From Octopus vulgaris (taxonomy: Eukaryota), in assembly GCA_951406725.2 (NCBI GenBank), contig OX597834.1:992001-1056000 (forward strand): DNA of 64,000 nucleotides. The letters run 5' to 3'. Of this stretch, positions 9,958 through 41,613 are shown piece after piece. The stretch's first letter is position 1. Each line of letters opens with the position of its first letter. The translations under genes were made by a program, and so were the position numbers. Under the pieces are notes generated by a model, which ran no database searches, was not told where the DNA came from, and saw nothing but the letters and a program-made list of their open reading frames with translations.

Positions 9958-10326
9958 CTGATTTTATTCAATTTCCAGGTACCCAATAAACTCAAAATGT
10001 CATGTAATGGGATAATAGTGATAATTCAGAGATTTAAAAGAAATAAGGATGATTATAGTTGGAAGGGCAACTCTTCTGAAACAAAAAGTATCAAGTCCCC
10101 AATACTTTTTGGTAGCAGCAACATTAGCATTTTGGATATAATTCATCTGTTTTTGTGGATCATAGAATCATCAGTGAAGAACGTGTAGAAGTCAGTTATG
10201 TCTACTAAAAAAAAATAGCAACATCATTTAACGTCTGTCTTCCTATAACAGTTGACTACAATGCTGCTATGCCAGTCATTGGGTATAATACCTTTCTATA
10301 CATCCTGATTAACTATATGGGTGAAG

Positions 10327-12794
10327 TGTATCAGACTGCCAGAAGGGAAGCTAGGAGGCAGGTTCATTTAGCCATAGGAGAAGCAGATAAGAAAAAATCT
10401 GCCAATGTTCTGCGTCGTGAGGACGAAAGAATTAAGGCATTTCGTGTTGCAAGACAGTGTGTGAGAGAGAATCCTGATGTGGTAGGAGAGAAATGTGTCC
10501 ACATGGATGATGGCTCACTTGCATTTAATGAGGCTGAAAAGAGAGAGACTTGGAGAAGCCACTATGAAAGGTTGCTGAATAAAGAAAATGAATGGGCGAA
10601 AAAGAGTCTGCCGAATGTCGACCCAACAGAGGGACCAGCTATCCGAGTTGACAGTACCTTGGTAGATAAGGCAATTAGAAGTATGAAGACAGGGAAAGCC
10701 CCAGGCCCATCAGGAATCACTGCAGAGATGCTCAAAATATCTGGCAGTGTCGGCTATAGCCTAGTCACCCGTATTGTAAACCAGGTGATACACAAAGGAG
10801 TCATTCCCAATGACTGGTGTAGCAGCATAATAGTTAACTGCTACAAAGGTAAAGGTGACACTTTAGATATAAATAATTACAGAGGTAACAAGCTGTTGGA
10901 TCAGGTAATGAAGGTCACGTAGAGGGTCATAGCCCAACTGATTAGGGAGAGAGTCAGCTTGGATGAGATGCAGTTTGGTTTCATGCCAGGGAAAAGCACC
11001 ACTGATGCCATATTTCTGGTAAGACAGCTGCAGGAGAAATACCTAGCCAAACATAAGCCCCTGTACCTGGCTTTTCGTTGACATGAAGAAAGCCTTTGAC
11101 AGGGTCCCTCAATCCCTTATCCGGTGGTCAATGAAGAAACTAAGGATAGATGAATGGTTAGTGAGAGCTGTGCAAGCCATGTACAGGGGTGCTGTAAGGT
11201 GAGGGTTGGCAACGAGCACACTGAAGAATTCAGGGTAGAGGTAGGGGTCCACCAAGGTTCAGTCCTCAGTCCCCACCTATCTATCTTAGTCCTCCAGGCA
11301 ATAATGGAGGAATTCAAGACAGGATGCCCCTGGGAGTGCCTCTATGCTGATGCCCTTGCACTAATTGCTGAGTCACTATCAGAACTGGAGGAGAAGTTTC
11401 AGGTGTGGAAACAAGGATTAGAATTGAAGGGCCTTAGAGTCAACCTAGCTAAAACCAAAGTCTTAATAAGTAGGAAAGCAGGCAAACCACAAATCCCTTC
11501 AGGTAGATGGCCCTGCTCGATCTGTTGTAGAGGCATAGGTAGAAACTCTTATAAGATGTACTAAGTGTAAACTATAGACACATAAGAGGTGCAGTAATAT
11601 CAAAGGAAGGCTAACTAGGAAGATAGTTTTTGTATGTGGCAGATGCTTGGGAGCAATAAACACTGAAAATGCACTGAGAACAACTTCCGCCACATTCCAG
11701 GGAGGAAAACTAGAAGTGGTTGATAGCTTCCATTACTTAGGTGACCAAGTCAGTAGCAGGGGAGGGTGCGATAAAAATAGCTTGGGCAAAGTTCAGAGAG
11801 CTCTTACTTCTGCTGGTGACAAAGGACCTCTCGCTCAGAGTAAAAGGTAGACTGTATGACATGTGTACGAACAGCCATGCTACATGGCAGTGAAACATGG
11901 GCTGTGACTGCTGAGGACATGCGTAAGCTTGCAAGGAATGAAGCCAGTATGATCAGATGGATGTGTAATGTCAGTGTGCATACTCGACAGAGTGTAAGTA
12001 CCTTGAGAGAAAAGTTGGACCTAAGAAGCATCAGATGTGGTGTGCAAGAGAGACGTTTGCGCTGGTATGGTCATGTGGCGAGAATGGATGAGGACAACTG
12101 TGCGAAAAAGTGCCACACCCTAGCGGTTGAGGGAACCTGTGGAAGAGGTAGACCCAGGAAAACCTGGGATGAAGTGGTGAAGCACAACCTTCAAACCTCA
12201 CCAAGGAAATGACTAGCGACTGAGACTTTTGGAAATATGCCGTGTGTGAGAAGACCCGGCAAGCCAAATGAGACCATAATCTGAAGGCCTATGCCAGGGG
12301 CATTACCAGCCCTCTTATGTGTACCTTTTCCTTCTTTGGACACTAAAACTCTGCTTGCGAAGACCTGTTGAGGCAAGTGAAATCAAATTCGATGACTGGC
12401 GTCCGTGCTAGCAGGGTGCAAAGAGAACCGTTCGAGCATGATCGTTACCAGCGTCACCTTACTGGCACTCGAGCCCCGTGCAAGTAGGGTATTGAGAGCA
12501 CCATCCGAGCGTGATCGTTACCAGCATCGCCTTACTGGCATCTGTGCTGGTGGCATGTGTAAAAGATTTGAGCAAGGTCGTTGCCAGTACTACCTGATTG
12601 GTTTCATGCTGGTGGCACGTAAAAGTACCCACTACACTCTCGGAGTGGTTGGCATTAGGAAGGGCATGCAGCTGTAGAAACTCTGCCAGATCAAGATTGA
12701 AGCCTGGTGCAGCCATCTGGTTCGCCAGCCCTTAGTCATTCGTCCAACCCATGCTAGCATGGAAAGCGGACGTTAAACGATGATGATGATGATG
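10327..12794 (+). mobile_element. RTE-clade LINE, 5'-truncated and degraded
   Basis: RT fragments (MKTGKAPGPSGITAEML, VGVHQGSVLSP, LYADAL, RRLRWYGHVARM, GRGRPRKTW) broken by stops and frameshifts; (GAT)n tail. Confidence 0.9.
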
Positions 12795-18363: not shown

Positions 18364-21199
18364 CAGGGGTCTCCAAAGTTTTCCAGCGGAGGGCCACATT
18401 GCTGAATTTTTAAAGCTACGGGGCCAAGGTTCTAAATTATTTATTTTACCAAAATAATATAAATAAATAGTGAATTAATAATTAAAAAAGTTTATTTATT
18501 CAGTACATAATCACAATGTATATAATATCAGTAACAATCAACATGTTTTTTAAACTTTGATCAATAGGGGAAACATGAAATTGTTTCATTTCTGACAAAA
18601 TTTTGTCCAACTGAGGTTCAAAATGAGTGGTTCCAATAACAAGCAATGCATTTAAATGTTCATCAGACAATTGTGATCTGTAGCAGGATTTTGTGTATTT
18701 CATCTTTGAAAAGTCTTCTCACACAAATATGTGGTGCCAAAAACTGAAATGAATTCACAGGCAAACCTCCTTAAATGAAGAAATTGGTCGGATGGAAGGC
18801 ATTTGTAGAATTCAATCAAATTTCCCTCTTTATATTTGTCCTTCAGGATGTCATTGGATTGCAAATCAATAACTTCCATTTGTAACTCAGAATTATAGTC
18901 TCCAATAACAGAGTTAAATGGATTTTCAAAAATTCTTAGTTTTGAAGAACATGCATCAAGATCAGAAAAACGTTCTTCAAACTGTTGTTTCAAAGCTAAA
19001 ATGACATCTTGAGCAAACAAGTTTGGAAATGGAGTGGCAGCTTCCTGTCTATATTTGTCACATCATGAAAAATGAGTAAAGCAGCTTCTTGTTAACTGAC
19101 TTTCAAATAGTATTAATTTCTTACGAAAAGCTTTCACCTTTGAGTACAAATCACAGATGAGTGAAGTTTCACCTTGTATCCGTAGGTTGAAATCATTGAG
19201 ATGCATAGTTAAATCGGCTGAAAATGCTAATTTCCAGAGCCATTCACTGTCTTTGAGCAACACCTGTGAATGGTTTTTCTCATTTAAAAATATTTCAATT
19301 TCAGTTCGAAGCTCAAAAAATCTAGCCAGAATTTTTCCATAGCTAAGCCATCTTACTGAAGTATAGTAAGGTAGGTCTGGAAACTCAGCATTCATTTCCT
19401 CCAAGAAATCACGAAATTGGCGATGTTTGAGTCCATGAGATCTTATGTAGTTAACAGTGGAAATCACAGGATCTAATACAGATGATAAATCAAGATGCTT
19501 TCCACACAGTGCTTGCTGATGAAGAATACAATGCAATACCAAAGGTTTCAATCCACCGGAATTCTCAATTACTTTGTTAATTTGCCCAACTAAGCCCTTT
19601 TTGGTTCCACACATATTTCTGCCACCATCTGTTGTTATGCATTTTAGTTTTTTCCATTCCAAATTATACTCAGCCACTGACTTTTCCACTTCTCTAAAAA
19701 TATCTATGCCTGTTGTTGTTCCATGCATGCTGTGCACAGATACAAGTTCCTCAGTAATCTCAAAATTGGCATTTATTCCTCTGATGAACAATAACAATTG
19801 GGATGTGTCTGATACATCAATTGACTCATCAAGTGCAACAGAAAAGCATACAAACTTGCTGGCTTTGTCTTTTAGCTGTGATTTAATATTTCTTTCAATA
19901 TGTTCAACCCTACGAGCAACAGTGTTCGCAGAAAGAGTAATTGCGGAAAATAAATCTACGTTTTCTGGACACATTTCCTTAGCTACCTCATTCAAGCACT
20001 TTTTAATAAGTTCACCATCTGTAAATGGCTTACCTTTCTTCGCCAAAAGGTTAGCAACATGGAAGCTTGCTCTTGTTGCTCTCTCTTTTTCTACAGCCTT
20101 CTTCTTGAAAACAAACTGCATTGATGATAAATTCTTCTTTAATTTGTCAAATTTCTCTTTACGTAGCTGTCCAATGAATTGGTAGTACTGTGATGAATGC
20201 TTTTTTTCATAATGTCTCCGAATGTTGTACTCTTTAAGTACTGCAATTGTGTCGGTGCATATAACGCATAGTGCCTTGTTGTTTGACTCTATGACAAAAT
20301 AGTCTATGTTCCATTGTTCCTTAAAAACTCTACACTCAGAGTCGATTTTTCGTTTTCTTCCTTGAGCTAACATTTTTACCATGGGTCGACAGATTTTGCT
20401 CGACGATATATGTAAAAGGACGAAACAAGTAAAAACAATATTCACAGGTCACTCGATACGTGCATTCACTTCGGCAGCGACGACGACAAATGACTCACAC
20501 TTGTGCACAACGAAAACGCCAAGTATGTGCTGACTGACGGAATGCGCATCGAACTTTACTCCACGCTGATTGGCGACTGCACCAGGATTAGAAACCACCA
20601 CACAACGTCAGGCTCAACCCTCTCTATTCATCGCTCGTGAGATGTAGGTAACATCGATAAATCGATATTTGTCTTCTTTTATTATACTAGGCACGGGACT
20701 TTTATTAACGTCATACTTGTCGTATCTGCTCTCTCGACAGTTGACGGAATAGGTTGACTTTTCTGCGACATCAATAAAGCTAGAAATTGAATCTCTGCTT
20801 CATTGTAAGCAGCACCATCCATCTCACTGACAATCGCCTATTATCTAAGATGAATGATAGGTAGCTCCATAGCGAAGTTAATTCATTTTATGGTGGTTCT
20901 GATGGGTCAGTTAAAACGGGGGGAGTGGAAAAGAACCTATATTTACACTAAAGTTTAGTGTATAAATTTTTAATTCGCCGGCGCAATTTAAAGACATTAA
21001 TTGATGGCAAATCAATTAGCGTCGTCTTGCGTCTATTTGCTGTACTATATTTGTCAAACGTATTAAAAGGGGTGTAAAGTATATTTGTTTTTGTATGATT
21101 TCGGCAAGGCTTGTTTTTCGACATTTGTTTTATAATTTTGGAGGACAGCTCGGCGGGCCTGATTAAAAACCTTGGCGGGCCGTACTTTGGAGACCCCTG
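18364..21199 (-). mobile_element. SPIN/Buster-type hAT transposon, full length (2836 bp)
   Basis: Perfect 16-bp TIR CAGGGGTCTCCAAAGT; perfect 8-bp TSD GTGTAGAG at 18356-18363 and 21200-21207. Confidence 0.95.
18500..20382 (-). pseudogene. hAT transposase (GTF2IRD2/SPIN-like) with one stop and one frameshift
   Basis: RKRKIDSECRVFKEQW, BED-type C2H2, FSVALDES, TTDG, HCILHQQAL, VRWLS, FGTTYLCE. In-frame TGA at 19063-19065; 1-nt loss near 18708. Confidence 0.9.
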
Positions 21200-31965: not shown

Positions 31966-32057
31966 TACTTTGATACTTTGATACTTTGATAGGTTTCGGC
32001 CATTATTGGCCCAGGCCATGTCTAACTTAATAGCACCACCTGGTGAAGTCTTTCAAG

Positions 32058-35000: not shown

Positions 35001-35177
35001 TGTGGAGGTTAGTGTAGTGGCTGGTTTTGACTGTTGCAGGGGGCTTGGATTTTTTGTGTGTGTTAGTGGCAGCAATGTGGGGAATTGGTGCACTGGGGTA
35101 ATAGCATAGGATGGTGTTGAGTGATGGCTAGAATGTTTTTGTGTATCTCTTTTGCCATGTTCAACATGGCTAAAAAA
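32058..35177 (-). pseudogene. LINE-A ORF2 (AP endonuclease plus reverse transcriptase), two 1-nt indels
   Basis: LTETHL, YRPP, MGDFNLP, SDH; [34 protein letters not shown]. Indels near 34545 and 33230. Confidence 0.88.
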
Positions 35178-36268
35178 GAATTTTCCTGCTTAGGGAGCAG
35201 TTTTTGGCTGGAGGTGTGGTTGCACTGTTGGATAGGGTTGTAGTTTCCACTTTTGTTGTTGTTGTTTTTGTGTCTTCCTGAAAAGACTGGACCAGCATTA
35301 CTGCAGCATGGTGTGTTTCTATTTTTATTGTTATTCAGGTTTGTGTGTTGGCTTGAGGCCCCGTTTCTGTTTGTGCGTCGGGTCCCTGGAAGATGAGTGA
35401 AGGGACAGTCACTCAGTAGACATGTTCTCTCACGTTGGGAATACCGGCAGATTTTGGGACTCCGAGTTGTGTGTGTTTTGAATTTCGATTTACTATTTGG
35501 TGGTGTTGATGTTATTGTGGGATTCGTGCTTTGGCCTTGGCCGGTAGTGCGTCTAGTGCCGGGTAGATGCGTGAAGATGCAGTCACTATTTGTGCAGAGT
35601 CTCTGGCGCAGTGAATAGCGGCATATTTGGGGATTTCTTGTTTGTGCCGTGGGGGGCGCATTCTGCTTCCTATGTTTCTTTAAGTTTTTGTTACTGCAGT
35701 AGTATTGAGGTGGTGATGTGGGGGAAGAGGGCAGTGGTTTCTTATTTGGTTTTCTGTTGGTATTTTTGGTGATTGAAGACGATGGTGGCAGCGGTGGTGA
35801 TGATGATGATGATAATTGTGGTGGTTGCTGTGAGAGCGGTGAAAAGATACTGGCATTTAGTGAATCATCTAGTAAGCTAGAGTTGAGGAGTGGCTGTTGT
35901 TGTTGTTGTTGTGCTTGACCGATGTTAGGGTCAGCCATTGTGCTGGGAACCAGGAGTGGCTCATTCTGTTGTTGTTGTTGTTGTGGCTGCTGATTTTCTA
36001 GCTGTTGTTGTTCTTGAACTGTGAAAATATGTAGAAGCTTTTCATAATGGCCTCTTATCAGTTTGAAAGATACTTCGATATGTTTCAGCTTGCTACGAAT
36101 CTGTTTGACGGATCGTGTGTTGACCACTTGTGATGTTTTTTCGGCAATCTCATTCAAACACAAGACATTTAGATTTTCTGTTTGGGAAAGAGAGAAACAT
36201 GTGTTTATTAAAACATCAATTTCGTTATCAGACCAATTTCGTCTGTTGCAGGCCTGCAAGTTAGTCAT
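35063..36268 (-). CDS. LINE-A ORF1: Myb/SANT-like N-terminus, poly-Q/P/S linker, two CCCH fingers
   Basis: Intact 401 aa; W S..E...L..RS.KQIRSKLK; two copies of IC-x7-C-x4-C-x3-HLPGTRRT. Confidence 0.75.
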   Translation of the reverse strand: MTNLQACNRRNWSDNEIDVLINTCFSLSQTENLNVLCLNEIAEKTSQVVNTRSVKQIRSKLKHIEVSFKLIRGHYEKLLHIFTVQEQQQLENQQPQQQQQQNEPLLVPSTMADPNIGQAQQQQQQPLLNSSLLDDSLNASIFSPLSQQPPQLSSSSSPPLPPSSSITKNTNRKPNKKPLPSSPTSPPQYYCSNKNLKKHRKQNAPPTAQTRNPQICRYSLRQRLCTNSDCIFTHLPGTRRTTGQGQSTNPTITSTPPNSKSKFKTHTTRSPKICRYSQRERTCLLSDCPFTHLPGTRRTNRNGASSQHTNLNNNKNRNTPCCSNAGPVFSGRHKNNNNKSGNYNPIQQCNHTSSQKLLPKQENSFLAMLNMAKEIHKNILAITQHHPMLLPQCTNSPHCCH

Positions 36269-37687: not shown

Positions 37688-37772
37688 TGATTGATTGATT
37701 GATTCTAGTTTCAGCTTATGAGATGTGGCCATGCTGGGGCACCGCCATTTGGTGTTGCTACTTGGTTTCACT

Positions 37773-40700
37773 TCATGGAGGCTTTCTAGCAACTGCTATT
37801 TGGTGCATGAGAGAGTTCGATGCAGCTGCCCTCATCTGCCCCTCCTGCCGTGAAGTTGGTTCATCTGGGACACCTGACAGGAAGAGATCCAGCTTCATTT
37901 TAAAGACATCTGTATCCACCCCATGCAGGTCTCTCAGGTTCTTCGGGAGGATATTAAAGAGCTGTGGGCCTCGGAAGCCCAGGCTATCACAGAATCTTGT
38001 CCTACATCTTGATGGCAGGTTTGGAGTCCTAGGCACCACGCAGTGGCGCCCAGTTCTGGCGTTTGCGTAACTCTCGATGCCAAAGTTCAGGACACTTCCC
38101 TCCAGGATCTTCCAGATGTATATTATGGCATATCTTTCCCGCCTACGCTCCAGGGAATATAATTTTAATCTCTTGAGTCTTTCCCAGTAGCTTACATTCT
38201 GCATAGAGGCTATCTTCTTTGTGTAGCTTCGTTGGATTGCCTCAAGTTCTGTGATCAACTTGACACTGGATGGTGACCATATCTGAGAGCAATAGTCAAA
38301 GTGGCTTAGGACAAGTGTCTTCCAGAGGACCATCATGGTTTCTTGTTCTCTTGTTCTAAAGGTTCTAAGAATCCATCCAGCCAGCCGTCTACATTTCATT
38401 GTCAGTTTAGCAACATGTACATGAAAGGTCGCGTCATCACTCATGTGAATACCCAGGTCACGCACTGATTGTGCCTCTGGGATTGCAATCCCTCCGGGTC
38501 CAGTGTATTCATTGGGTATTGCATTCAGTTTTGCATGCTGATAGTATAAAGCTTGAAACTTTCCAGCATTGAACTGCATGCTATTCTTTTCAGCCCACTT
38601 GTATATTTCGTCCAGCTCACATTGCAGGTGTTTAGTGTCCTCAGGGTTCTGTATTGCCTGTGAAACTTTTGTATCATCTGCATAACTTGTGATCGTGGCT
38701 CTCTGCGTGGCTGAGGGCATGTCTGAGAGGGCCATTATGAACAGTAGTGGTCCCAGAACAGTGCCCTGCGGAACACCGCTCACTATTTGTGTGTTAATGG
38801 AGGTGGCCCCATTGGCTACTACCACCTGACTTCTATCCTTCAGAAAGTCATGAAGCCATTCTCCCAGTTTTCCAACTATGTTGAGATCACGCAGTTTGTG
38901 ACATATCATTCCATGATCGACTTTATCAAAGGCCTTTGCAAAGTCGAGATATATCACTTCCACATTTGAGTGGTTGAGCAGCCGTTTCAGCACCCAGTCA
39001 TAGTGTTGTAGGAGCTGAGTTAAACAGCTTCTCCCTGGTCGGAAACCATGTTGGGTGTCGGGCAGCAAGTCATTCTCTTCAAGGAAGGTGATCAGCTTCC
39101 TTCTGACTATTCGTTCCATGACCTTGCTGATGTGTGAGGTCAGAGAGATAGGTCTGTAGTTCTTGGCTTCCGCTCTGCTACCTCCTTTATGAATGGGGCA
39201 TATTTTACCTTCCTTCAGTTTTCCTGGAAGTTTGCCAGCTGCAAGGAAGCTCTGAAAGAGGAACTGCAGTGGTCTTGCTAGGACTCTCTTACATACTTTT
39301 AGGAGGATTGCCGGGAATCCATCGGGGCCAGTAGCTGAGTCTGTTTTCATTTCATCTATAGCCTTGGTTACATCGTCTTCCTTTATATCGATGTAATCTA
39401 TCGTCGCTGCCTCTGATTTTATATCTGCAGTGGTAAAAAAGTCAGTTGGATTGGTGATTTGGAGATGCCCAAGGGTGGAGTGAAAACACTCTTGAATTGC
39501 TCATTCAGTATTTCACTTACCCTCATTGGTTTTCCTGTAAGTGTGCCATCCTTTTCAAGGAGTGGCCCTATTCTACAGTGCACTGTAGCTGTTTCTTTGG
39601 CATACCTGTAGAAAGCTCTGGGGTTAGATTTTATGTTTTCTATAGCCCAGGCTTCTTTGTCTGCTCTTTCTTTTTCATGGGAGAGTTGCAGACATTTTTC
39701 GATTTCCAACAGTTTTATTTTTAGGCGGGACTTTTCACTGCTTTCAATCTGTTTGTTTAGGCGATTTGAAAATTTCGTACGCCGTCTCATTAAAATTTTC
39801 CTCTCTCTGGGGATTTTGTTCTTGTGTACAGTGGCCTTTCTCTCTGGGACACATTTGTAGCATATGGCTTGCATTACAGACATGAATTGTTGAAGTTTCA
39901 CGTCGATGTCTGGCGAGTTTTGTTTGAGGATCTCTTTCTCAATTTGTTTCCAGTTTGCCTTATGGTAGTTCAAGCTGGAAAGATTTTGAGGGTTTCTTGT
40001 AGGCTGCATGTCCGTGCTCTCTTTTGGCCCGTACATGGTCAGCTCTATCATGTTGTGATCCGAGAGTAGTGTCGGTGTCACTTTCACATTATGGATGAGA
40101 TCCATGTCATTTGTGAAGCAGAGATCCAGTGTGTTACCTGCCCTGGTTGGTTGGAGTATTACCTGCTCCATGTACAGGGTGTTGATGAGGTTCAGGAGGG
40201 ACCTCGCCTGTCCTCGTTCACATCTTGTCATTCCTGGGAGAGAAAGGCCCTCGGGCCATCTGACATTGGGCAGATTGAAGTCTCCCATAAGAAGCACACC
40301 TATGTGTTGTTCTAATGTGGTTAGAATTTCTTCTATTTTTATAAGGCAGTCTTCGAACTTGCCCACATGGCTTGGGGCATCTGGAGGGCGATATGTAGCA
40401 CACACAACTACATCAAGTTGCCTAATATGTACAATTAGTGTGTCACACACCGAGTTTGAGTATGACAAGAGGACCTGGGGTGTGAGGTCCTCACGGATGT
40501 ACATAGCAACACCTCCATGACTCCTTTCTTTCCTGTTGGTCCGTAGTACAGCATACTGTGGTATGTGTAACTCCGCATCTGCTATGTCCGGTTTCAGGTG
40601 CGTTTCTGTAAGTGCTATGCATAAGGCTTGATTGCATGCAACAAAGTCTCTCAGGAACGGGATCTTTGTCCTGTTACTGAGTGTTTGCAGTCCTCTGATG

Positions 40701-40864
40701 TTCAGTAGGAGTATCGAGGTGAGGTGTACGTTGTTGCCGGCGGTGTCCATCCTGTGTCTGTTTGCTGTGGTGGTCTGGTATATAGTGGGTAGTCCCACCT
40801 GCGGGCTTGGGTTTGATGAAGCCAGGTCAGCTGCTGTACAATCTTTTGTGCCATGCACAAAAAA
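37773..40864 (-). pseudogene. LINE-B ORF2 (APE plus RT) with a single 1-nt homopolymer loss
   Basis: [52 protein letters not shown] at 39473-39475 versus GGGG in the other copies. Confidence 0.88.
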
Positions 40865-41613
40865 GATTGTTGCTCAGCAGCTGCTCTTTCGATAATATCA
40901 TGTTGGCTGTTTGTGGCGCGCACAACATCTGCGTACCTCCGCTTTGGGGCAGGTGGTGCGTAGTCCATCCCTTTTCTTTGTGTTGATGGTTTGTCCATCT
41001 GCCTCGTGTCTCTGTGGCAGGGTCCCCGATGTGCAAAGCGGCAGCCTGCACCTTCCTTTCCGTGCCAGCAGGAACCTCTCAGGTAGAACATACACACCCG
41101 TGTGCGCTGTTTGGTTCCATCCTTTGCGGTTCCACTTCTACTCCTGGTTGTTTCACTCTTTGGTCCTGCTTGAGCTTTTTCTTTTCCTTTAGCTCTTCCA
41201 GTCCTTCTTTTAGTTCTTCTTCCTCCCTCTACCTCTTCACCGGGTTCTCCGTCTCCATGGCCCTTGCTGCCGGTTGGAGAACTTGCACCTGGGTTCACTT
41301 CCCGGGCAGGTTTCTCATTCAAAACCTCCTCCTGGGCGTCCACCAGGTGGGGGTGACTTCTTTCATCGTCTCCATTCTTGCCATCTTTGCCCCGCTCGTT
41401 CTCAAAGATGACATCAAGTGCGCCAATGTGCGACCGTACAAGCGCATATGAGCGCACGAATTCCTGTCTCTTTCGCTCCATCTGAGCCGCTGTCCTCTTG
41501 TAGCCTCTGCTCTTCAGCGCAGCCGCAATCACCTCGCTAGGGCTATCTCCGCCGGCGCACTCCCATGCTCGTACGAATAAATCCAGCTCGTCACGTCTCC
41601 ATGCTCTGGACAT
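40702..41613 (-). CDS. LINE-B ORF1: Myb/SANT-like N-terminus and one CCCH finger
   Basis: Intact 303 aa; WRRDELDLF..W..IAAALKSRGYKRTAAQMERK; CMFYLRGSCWHGKEGAGCRFAH. Confidence 0.75.
   Translation of the reverse strand: MSRAWRRDELDLFVRAWECAGGDSPSEVIAAALKSRGYKRTAAQMERKRQEFVRSYALVRSHIGALDVIFENERGKDGKNGDDERSHPHLVDAQEEVLNEKPAREVNPGASSPTGSKGHGDGEPGEEVEGGRRTKRRTGRAKGKEKAQAGPKSETTRSRSGTAKDGTKQRTRVCMFYLRGSCWHGKEGAGCRFAHRGPCHRDTRQMDKPSTQRKGMDYAPPAPKRRYADVVRATNSQHDIIERAAAEQQSFLCMAQKIVQQLTWLHQTQARRWDYPLYTRPPQQTDTGWTPPATTYTSPRYSY

Follow-up and report, generated by a model that had tools for sequence, protein, structure and literature searches.

The ORF1 of LINE-B, a LINE present on the minus strand of the window (the whole stretch of Octopus vulgaris DNA analyzed here, 64,000 nucleotides of contig OX597834.1), contains a conserved slippery heptamer, U UUU UUG, at which a minority of ribosomes likely slip by -1, which would yield ORF2 as an ORF1-ORF2 fusion. 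U UUU UUA or U UUU UUG was found in the -1 phase at all 21 readable junctions (7 octopus families and 14 metagenome elements), and on comparison of these sequences we regard it as a genuine candidate site of -1 frameshifting throughout the clade.

The LINE-B junction and its octopus relatives

The features of LINE-B and of its neighbor LINE-A are listed in Table 1. The initial annotation of this DNA had described the LINE-B ORF1 as reading S-F-L over the heptamer, with a -1 frame stop shortly upstream and ORF2 in the -1 frame, and each of these points was borne out: the codons TCT TTT TTG are located at 40866-40858, three sense codons (A-T-I) separate the TGA from the heptamer, and the ORF2 frame opens directly after this TGA, spanning 1039 aa from stop to stop in intact copies. 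Since the TGA blocks the ORF2 frame, ORF2 is unreachable in frame from any upstream start. The overlap of the two ORFs ends at the conserved endonuclease Asn (40702-40700).

Table 1. Features of LINE-B and LINE-A in the window
Feature	Position	Strand	Remarks
LINE-B ORF1	40702..41613	minus	303 aa; stop TGA 40704-40702; weak Myb/SANT-like N-terminus, one CCCH finger, F-L helix from slip site, Q/P-rich tail
LINE-B slippery heptamer U UUU UUG	40858..40864	minus	phased for -1 shift from ORF1 to ORF2
TGA in ORF2 frame	40874..40876	minus	just 5' of heptamer
Long predicted hairpin	40828..40883	minus	U-run in 5' arm
LINE-B ORF1/ORF2 overlap	40702..40864	minus	frame 0 codes the ORF1 tail, frame -1 a Thr/Ser/Pro-rich linker of ORF2
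In-frame ORF2 ATG	40748..40750	minus	from ORF1 codons Gly(GGA)-Trp; 46 nt 5' of ORF1 stop
LINE-B ORF2	37773..40873	minus	APE endonuclease and reverse transcriptase
LINE-A heptamer U UUU UUA	35171..35177	minus	phase as in LINE-B
LINE-A hairpin	35146..35179	minus	encloses U-run
LINE-A ORF1	35063..36268	minus	Myb/SANT-like, two CCCH-type fingers, F-L helix

The LINE-B junction (40700-40950) is a feature of the family and not a copy error, because 28 of the 37 B-type matches represent one variant and the heptamer is invariant, none of the matches differing within it. All 40 scored matches to the junction (of 1751 candidates) were 99-100% identical, and many copies carry a 1039-aa ORF2. The family is young, despite the frame break in the copy present in the window, whose ORF2 is split into two parts (39419-40873 and 37773-39500).

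LINE-A and LINE-B had been said to share little similarity in ORF1. This was not upheld: both proteins gave a weak Myb/SANT-like match and contain CCCH fingers and an F-L..M-A-x-K helix, and because of these shared domains and helix the hairpins of the two elements are not fully independent evidence. The ORF2 of LINE-A has no Met ahead of the endonuclease.

Genome searches revealed five further octopus families, C (15 loci), B', A', D and E (6 loci). In each of them U UUU UUA or U UUU UUG occurs in this phase, preceded at a distance of 2-8 codons by a stop in the -1 frame. Family D (~39% endonuclease identity to LINE-B) codes its Ser as AGU, lacks the hairpin, and has its first Met only deep inside the endonuclease. 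The sister family B', which has intact 1039-aa ORF2s, retains Gly-Trp in ORF1 but reads GUG where LINE-B has AUG, which suggests that the LINE-B AUG is incidental to the coding of ORF1. Two other AUGs precede the endonuclease Asn in B'. A motif search for further B-like families in the octopus genome gave nothing with two of the three motifs, and families other than these seven may exist.

Conservation of the heptamer and of the open -1 frame

A metagenome scan with the endonuclease alignment returned 80 of the 110 confirmed loci. In a quick endonuclease tree of 66 rows (fragments left out, no named reference LINEs), 16 metagenome loci grouped with the octopus families in a core clade of 31 rows (SH-aLRT 98), many members of which have ORF1s with PHD-like and tandem CCCH domains. 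The junction was present in 14 of the best 20 metagenome loci (L106-L125), and the heptamer in all 14; the six loci left out either start 3' of the site (L113, L117) or lie on contigs that begin in or just before a broken endonuclease (L116, L118, L122, L124). Pairwise endonuclease identities among the surveyed elements are 26-71%, B and B' excepted.

All 21 core elements have a heptamer of the form X XXY YYZ in phase with an overlapping -1 ORF. Its last base is A in 17 of them and G in LINE-B, B', E and L123, whereas the consensus for -1 sites given in passages of PMC3542737 and PMC2569925 has A, C or U at this position. The residue preceding Phe-Leu varies (S, D, H, A or L), and its codon invariably ends in U. 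A profile search added 15 non-octopus ORF1 proteins in which this residue is P, H, S, D or A, all of which have codons with a final U, and never K, E, Q, M or W; the other seven matches comprised two octopus ORF1s with S-F-L, four fragments and one gene model that skips the site.

When 20 overlap windows were examined by phase, 20, 0 and 7 of them contained a heptamer in the three phases, with 5.9 expected from shuffles, and none of the 66 other Phe-Leu pairs in the same elements is coded xxU UUU UUR. The P values obtained overstate independence, because the surveyed elements are related: a synonymous codon test on the heptamer gave a joint P of 10^-27.9 for 20 elements and of 10^-15.5 when each of 12 clusters was represented by a single element, and the absence of stops in the -1 frame over the ORF1 tail, observed in 21 of 21 elements, gave P 10^-11.4 under synonymous recoding, again with a single element per cluster. 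In all 21 the ORF2 frame is open from the slip site to the endonuclease, over up to 214 codons, and stretches of equal length 5' of the site contain 1-18 stops in the -1 frame in every element. The third reading frame was dropped as a control for the open frame, being biased by Met-rich tails, and the synonymous null was used instead.

Outside the core clade, 14 of 16 distant loci with -1 geometry carry an in-phase A AAA AAC, U UUA AAC or U UUU UUG/UUA (4.6 expected). This set includes L129 and L150, which have no heptamer, and excludes the near-duplicate L130 and two broken copies, L133 and L176. The overlap is present and the canonical heptamer absent in L129, L130 and L150. Distant LINEs that combine other ORF1 types with an in-phase heptamer are L126, L127, L128, L140, L142, L145, L146, L153, L155, L156, L161, L162, L164 and L172. 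No such in-phase site was found in metagenome loci whose ORFs overlap in the +1 frame or that have one long ORF only. Taken as evidence from sequence, the clade-wide survey strongly supports the interpretation that these junctions are sites of frameshifting.

RNA structure at the slip site

The initial annotation had also placed the U-run of LINE-B within an extended hairpin, and the structure was recovered as written. It contains a 4-nt bulge, has a predicted MFE of -31.9 kcal/mol, which none of 200 dinucleotide shuffles equaled (z -4.53), still forms in a 251-nt fold, and exceeds synonymous ORF1 recodings that keep the heptamer and the open -1 frame (z -3.2, 0/300). The synonymous null was passed by the enclosing hairpins of A, B, B' and E (z -3.7, -3.2, -3.3 and -2.9), which represent two lineages; it was also passed by L121, in which the heptamer lies in the loop, and weakly by L123 (p 0.03).

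The broader proposal, that the slip site within a hairpin forms a functional unit conserved in related families, did not hold, as the structure passes the null in that form in only 4 of 21 elements. B, B' and E retain it and C has a weak form; against the null it is either missing or unremarkable in C, A', D and 12 of the 14 metagenome elements, which make up the 15 of 21 that fail. The hairpin is thus ruled out as a clade-wide feature; it is genuine but confined to two octopus lineages. A survey of related LINEs for both S-F-L and stem covariation had been suggested in addition: the site was recovered, with the heptamer in 21 of 21, but two-sided changes in the stem numbered 0 among 8 B-group rows.

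It is rather doubtful that the enclosing hairpin is the functional signal that sets the shift rate, by masking the slip site or by refolding around the ribosome. Besides its performance against synonymous recodings, 90.8% of the cells in the 8 B-group rows are paired, and A and A' retain the upper stem despite a change of GCC/GGC to GCU/AGC (judged by eye). However, the B-group changes are all one-sided (seven), 66 of 500 shuffles reach the same paired share, most relatives lack the structure, and its 3' arm, which codes M-A-x-K-(I/E), is purine-rich and could pair with any U-run. A stimulatory structure is expected 5-9 nt 3' of the heptamer, as stated in passages of PMC3542737. By this spacer rule a ribosome positioned on the heptamer would already have melted the 5' arm and loop, and a stem that contains the slip site presumably cannot be the barrier met by the shifting ribosome. 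For this reason, and because most relatives have no such hairpin, it is unlikely to be the stimulator; a damping or a non-translational role is possible.

Among the octopus families, no significant 3' structure was detected at the canonical spacer (40-nt z -1.3 to +1.3), the values for LINE-B at 5-9 nt 3' of the heptamer being +0.5 and +1.3 (folds without pseudoknots). Five metagenome elements (L109, L114, L120, L121 and L123) have a predicted hairpin ~6 nt 3' of the site, in the canonical layout (z -2.5 to -4.5). Pairing of the post-slip sequence with the 3' end of the element was analyzed in 10 full-length elements at three offsets. It was clear in L111 only, marginal in A (3.8%) and L120 (2.9%), and absent in B, B', A', D, L106, L110 and L115. 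The predicted L111 duplex (~18-20 bp, -31.9 kcal/mol, the best of 320 control windows) joins a segment 22 nt after the heptamer with one located 46-21 nt before the ORF2 stop, 3.7 kb apart, and is a candidate long-range stimulator. The heptamer is therefore constant and the structure variable, an enclosing hairpin, a 3' hairpin or a 3'-end duplex being predicted in different elements.

Possible routes to ORF2

According to the frameshift model, tRNA-Phe and tRNA-Leu would slip in tandem on U UUU UUR. Most ribosomes would continue unshifted to give the 303-aa ORF1 protein with its C-terminal helix and Q/P tail, and those that shift would keep the N-terminal and CCCH domains, the tail being replaced by the linker, endonuclease and reverse transcriptase; the predicted fusion consists of the first 250 ORF1 residues followed by 1036 codons of the -1 frame (~1286 aa). 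Slippage of this kind would hold ORF2 at a low ratio to ORF1, comparable to that of retroviral Gag-Pol. The stimulator would differ by lineage, and the octopus hairpin, being lineage-specific, would at most modulate the shift. Since the final G lies outside the consensus, the shift may be weak in LINE-B, and this G together with the lack of a 3' structure suggests a low rate.

Alternatively, ORF2 could be made separately, alone or beside frameshifting, by termination-reinitiation near the ORF1 stop or from an in-frame AUG, as in SART1 and L1. In B, C and E an AUG with a favorable context indeed precedes the ORF1 stop by 46, 46 and 52 nt, the ORF1 stop lies 1-25 codons from the endonuclease start, as re-initiation predicts, and stop-start overlaps (UAAUG or UGAUG) in frame with ORF2 accompany the slip site in 3 of 21 elements (L111, L114 and L121), whose sequences possibly provide two routes to ORF2. 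Re-initiation nevertheless leaves the heptamer, its phase and the long open -1 frame unexplained, and we consider it unlikely. The ATG just before the endonuclease domain, which had been raised as a caveat, does exist in LINE-B, but its weight is reduced: it is GUG in the active family B', it lies 46 nt back, whereas caliciviral re-initiation, in the source passages describing it, starts within ~1-14 nt of the overlap, and 9 of the 21 elements have no AUG before the endonuclease Asn (among them we count L115, with its first Met at codon 248), 12 having none at least 5 codons before it. The UAAUG stop-start that marks the SART1 type is absent from the ORF1 stop of LINE-B. An AUG route that runs parallel to the frameshift is possible in this element.

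Two further explanations concern the U-run itself. It could serve as a polypyrimidine tract which, with an AG, forms a splice acceptor joining an upstream exon to ORF2; an acceptor-like word, UUUUUUAG, is present in 15 of 21 elements, and the octopus gene model P0013 (family D) fuses ORF1 to ORF2 at this point in silico. This is extremely improbable, given that the AG is missing in B, B', C, E and L123 and in another phase in L125, that A AAA AAC and U UUA AAC sites are unable to be acceptors, and that none of 30 A and none of 30 D genomic copies (query starting after the AG) was linked to an upstream donor. In eight runs, of which six are only guessed to be RNA, the contigs had no joint at either slip site and three were colinear across the LINE-A site, which is not evidence on expression or splicing. 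Slippage of a polymerase (RNA polymerase II or the reverse transcriptase of the element) on the U-run, yielding in-frame RNA or DNA copies, is very improbable as well. Of 30 copies in each family, 14 in A and 4 in B have a run of altered length, with other runs of 5-7 bases altered in at most 2 of 29 A, 1 of 24 B and 3 of 16 D copies, and four A copies (-2 or +1) have ORF1 and ORF2 brought into one frame (loci surveyed in A, B and D: L192-L221, L252-L281 and L222-L251). On the other hand, most changes (in LINE-A, at 35177-35172: -1 in seven copies, -2 in three, -3 in three and +1 in one) are of the -1 and -3 types that fail to fuse the frames, none was observed in 29 copies of D, a family without the hairpin, and polymerase slippage needs no fixed phase and fits poorly with U UUA AAC sites. 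The changes may be long-read assembly errors at a hairpin, or else real mutations, such as those caused by reverse transcriptase slippage.

Several known systems are comparable. In passages of PMC2569925, PMC5009743 and PMC3542737, the alphavirus 6K/TF and HIV-1 gag-pol junctions share the -1 shift and the heptamer U UUU UUA. The alphavirus site shifts at 10-18% with a 3' structure that is diverse or not compact, so that, as in this LINE clade, the site is conserved and its 3' stimulators vary (passages of PMC2569925); PMC5009743 ranks A AAA AAC and U UUA AAC with the most shift-prone sites and names U UUU UUA as the HIV site. These viral sites have been tested by reporter assays and mass spectrometry; in LINE-B the heptamer is U UUU UUG, and the stem already begins within it. 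The closest parallels among LINEs are the Dictyostelium elements TRE5-A and TRE3-A, APE-type non-LTR elements with two overlapping ORFs, for which a figure legend in the review PMC5911963 states that a -1 frameshift is required for ORF2; they belong to another LINE lineage and host and have a C-terminal zinc finger in ORF2, and the accessible text of that review gives no heptamer or clade-wide conservation for them. Metazoan Ty3/gypsy elements similarly join a gag-like ORF to a reverse transcriptase ORF through a heptamer shift, with pol in -1 in 28 of 51 animal elements (passages of PMC5009743), but these are LTR elements with a protease and particles. The intact 1039-aa ORF2 gave no protease match in Pfam, and the fusion would therefore stay uncut unless a host enzyme cuts it.

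SART1 and mammalian L1 resemble LINE-B in having a bicistronic LINE RNA and low ORF2 output. For SART1 re-initiation has been described, and for L1 it has been proposed; it can tolerate non-AUG starts (passages of PMC5972666 and PMC1965478), and the restart occurs at or after the ORF1 stop (PMC5972666); in the elements studied here, unlike these, the ORF2 frame opens at the slip site, 30-214 codons before the ORF1 stop. Source passages also suggest +1 shifting or re-initiation for Paramecium LINEs and state that HeT-A gag needs a frameshift. Further background was drawn from parts of PMC10294476, PMC9115989, PMC5405496, PMC5391098, PMC5006619 and PMC11835228. We found no report of a slippery site in a CR1-type LINE in a search covering the main texts of largely open-access papers; among the matches listed, no CR1 paper contained the word 'slippery', and the searched parts of octopus and CR1-group papers had no 'frameshift' passage on these elements.

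As to classification, the intact 1039-aa ORF2 contains APE and reverse transcriptase domains and no RNase H match (Pfam), and a short tandem-repeat tail is present in A, A', B, B', D and several metagenome elements, both as in the CR1 group. The C-terminal motifs of these LINEs are, we presume, CR1-like. The label CR1-type rests on this structure, on these motifs and on the CR1 annotation of O. vulgaris (13 recently active families, according to passages of PMC13282606). Canonical vertebrate CR1 elements have an esterase-type ORF1, in contrast to the PHD- or Myb-like and CCCH types found here; no esterase was detected by Pfam in 10 ORF1s, which gave weak PHD, CCCH and Myb-like matches instead. 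Identity with Zenon, described in passages of PMC13343379 as missing ORF1 and having a poly-A tail, was ruled out by the presence of ORF1 and a tandem-repeat tail, and the expressed octopus LINE RTE-2_OV, a single-ORF element in the source passages, is not this element.

Synthesis of the second protein has been settled for few LINEs only, and there by re-initiation. If the frameshift model is correct, a large group of animal LINEs would make a fused ORF1-endonuclease-reverse transcriptase at a fixed low ratio, which would bear on RNP assembly, cis-preference and host restriction. As one joint reading, plausible but put forward tentatively, -1 frameshifting may be the usual route to ORF2 in a large part of animal CR1-type LINEs, with varied ORF1 types and heptamers (U UUU UUR, A AAA AAC, U UUA AAC); the active enzyme would then be a Gag-Pol-like fusion minus the C-terminal helix of ORF1, stimulators (local hairpin, 3'-end pairing or none) would have been swapped between lineages, and the octopus hairpin would be a brake that hides the slip site. 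The surveyed junctions would at the same time be a large set of natural -1 signals; some of them have no obvious 3' structure, and in some the heptamer ends in G. For annotation, a conserved frameshift would mean that ORF2s called from the first AUG are truncated and that gene models invent an intron at the site: the predicted intron of P0013 ends at the AG after the U-run and skips the slip site, and an unrelated name is attached to the model.

Two more LINE-B copies occur in the window, at 45554-48700 (minus strand) and 48639-51869 (plus strand), in back-to-back arrangement on either side of a long (TA)n tract; with the nearby LINE-A and LINE-B they form a local cluster of four related insertions. 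In the second of these copies (49423-49867, plus strand) the stretch matching 41225-40857 is replaced by 7 other bases; the break, whose end lies at the hairpin top, fuses ORF1 in frame to ORF2. The 3' ends of LINE-B (near 37700), LINE-A (near 31970), L061, L083 and L094 are short tandem tails, and most inspected copies of these families are inserted in (TA)n microsatellites, which suggests a target preference. Elsewhere in the window, a 461-aa open frame (19063-20448, minus strand) resembles what we take to be a fragment of a hAT/SPIN-type transposase, and a fragment of another LINE ORF2, presumably RTE-like as judged by eye, is located at 10209-10922 (plus strand).
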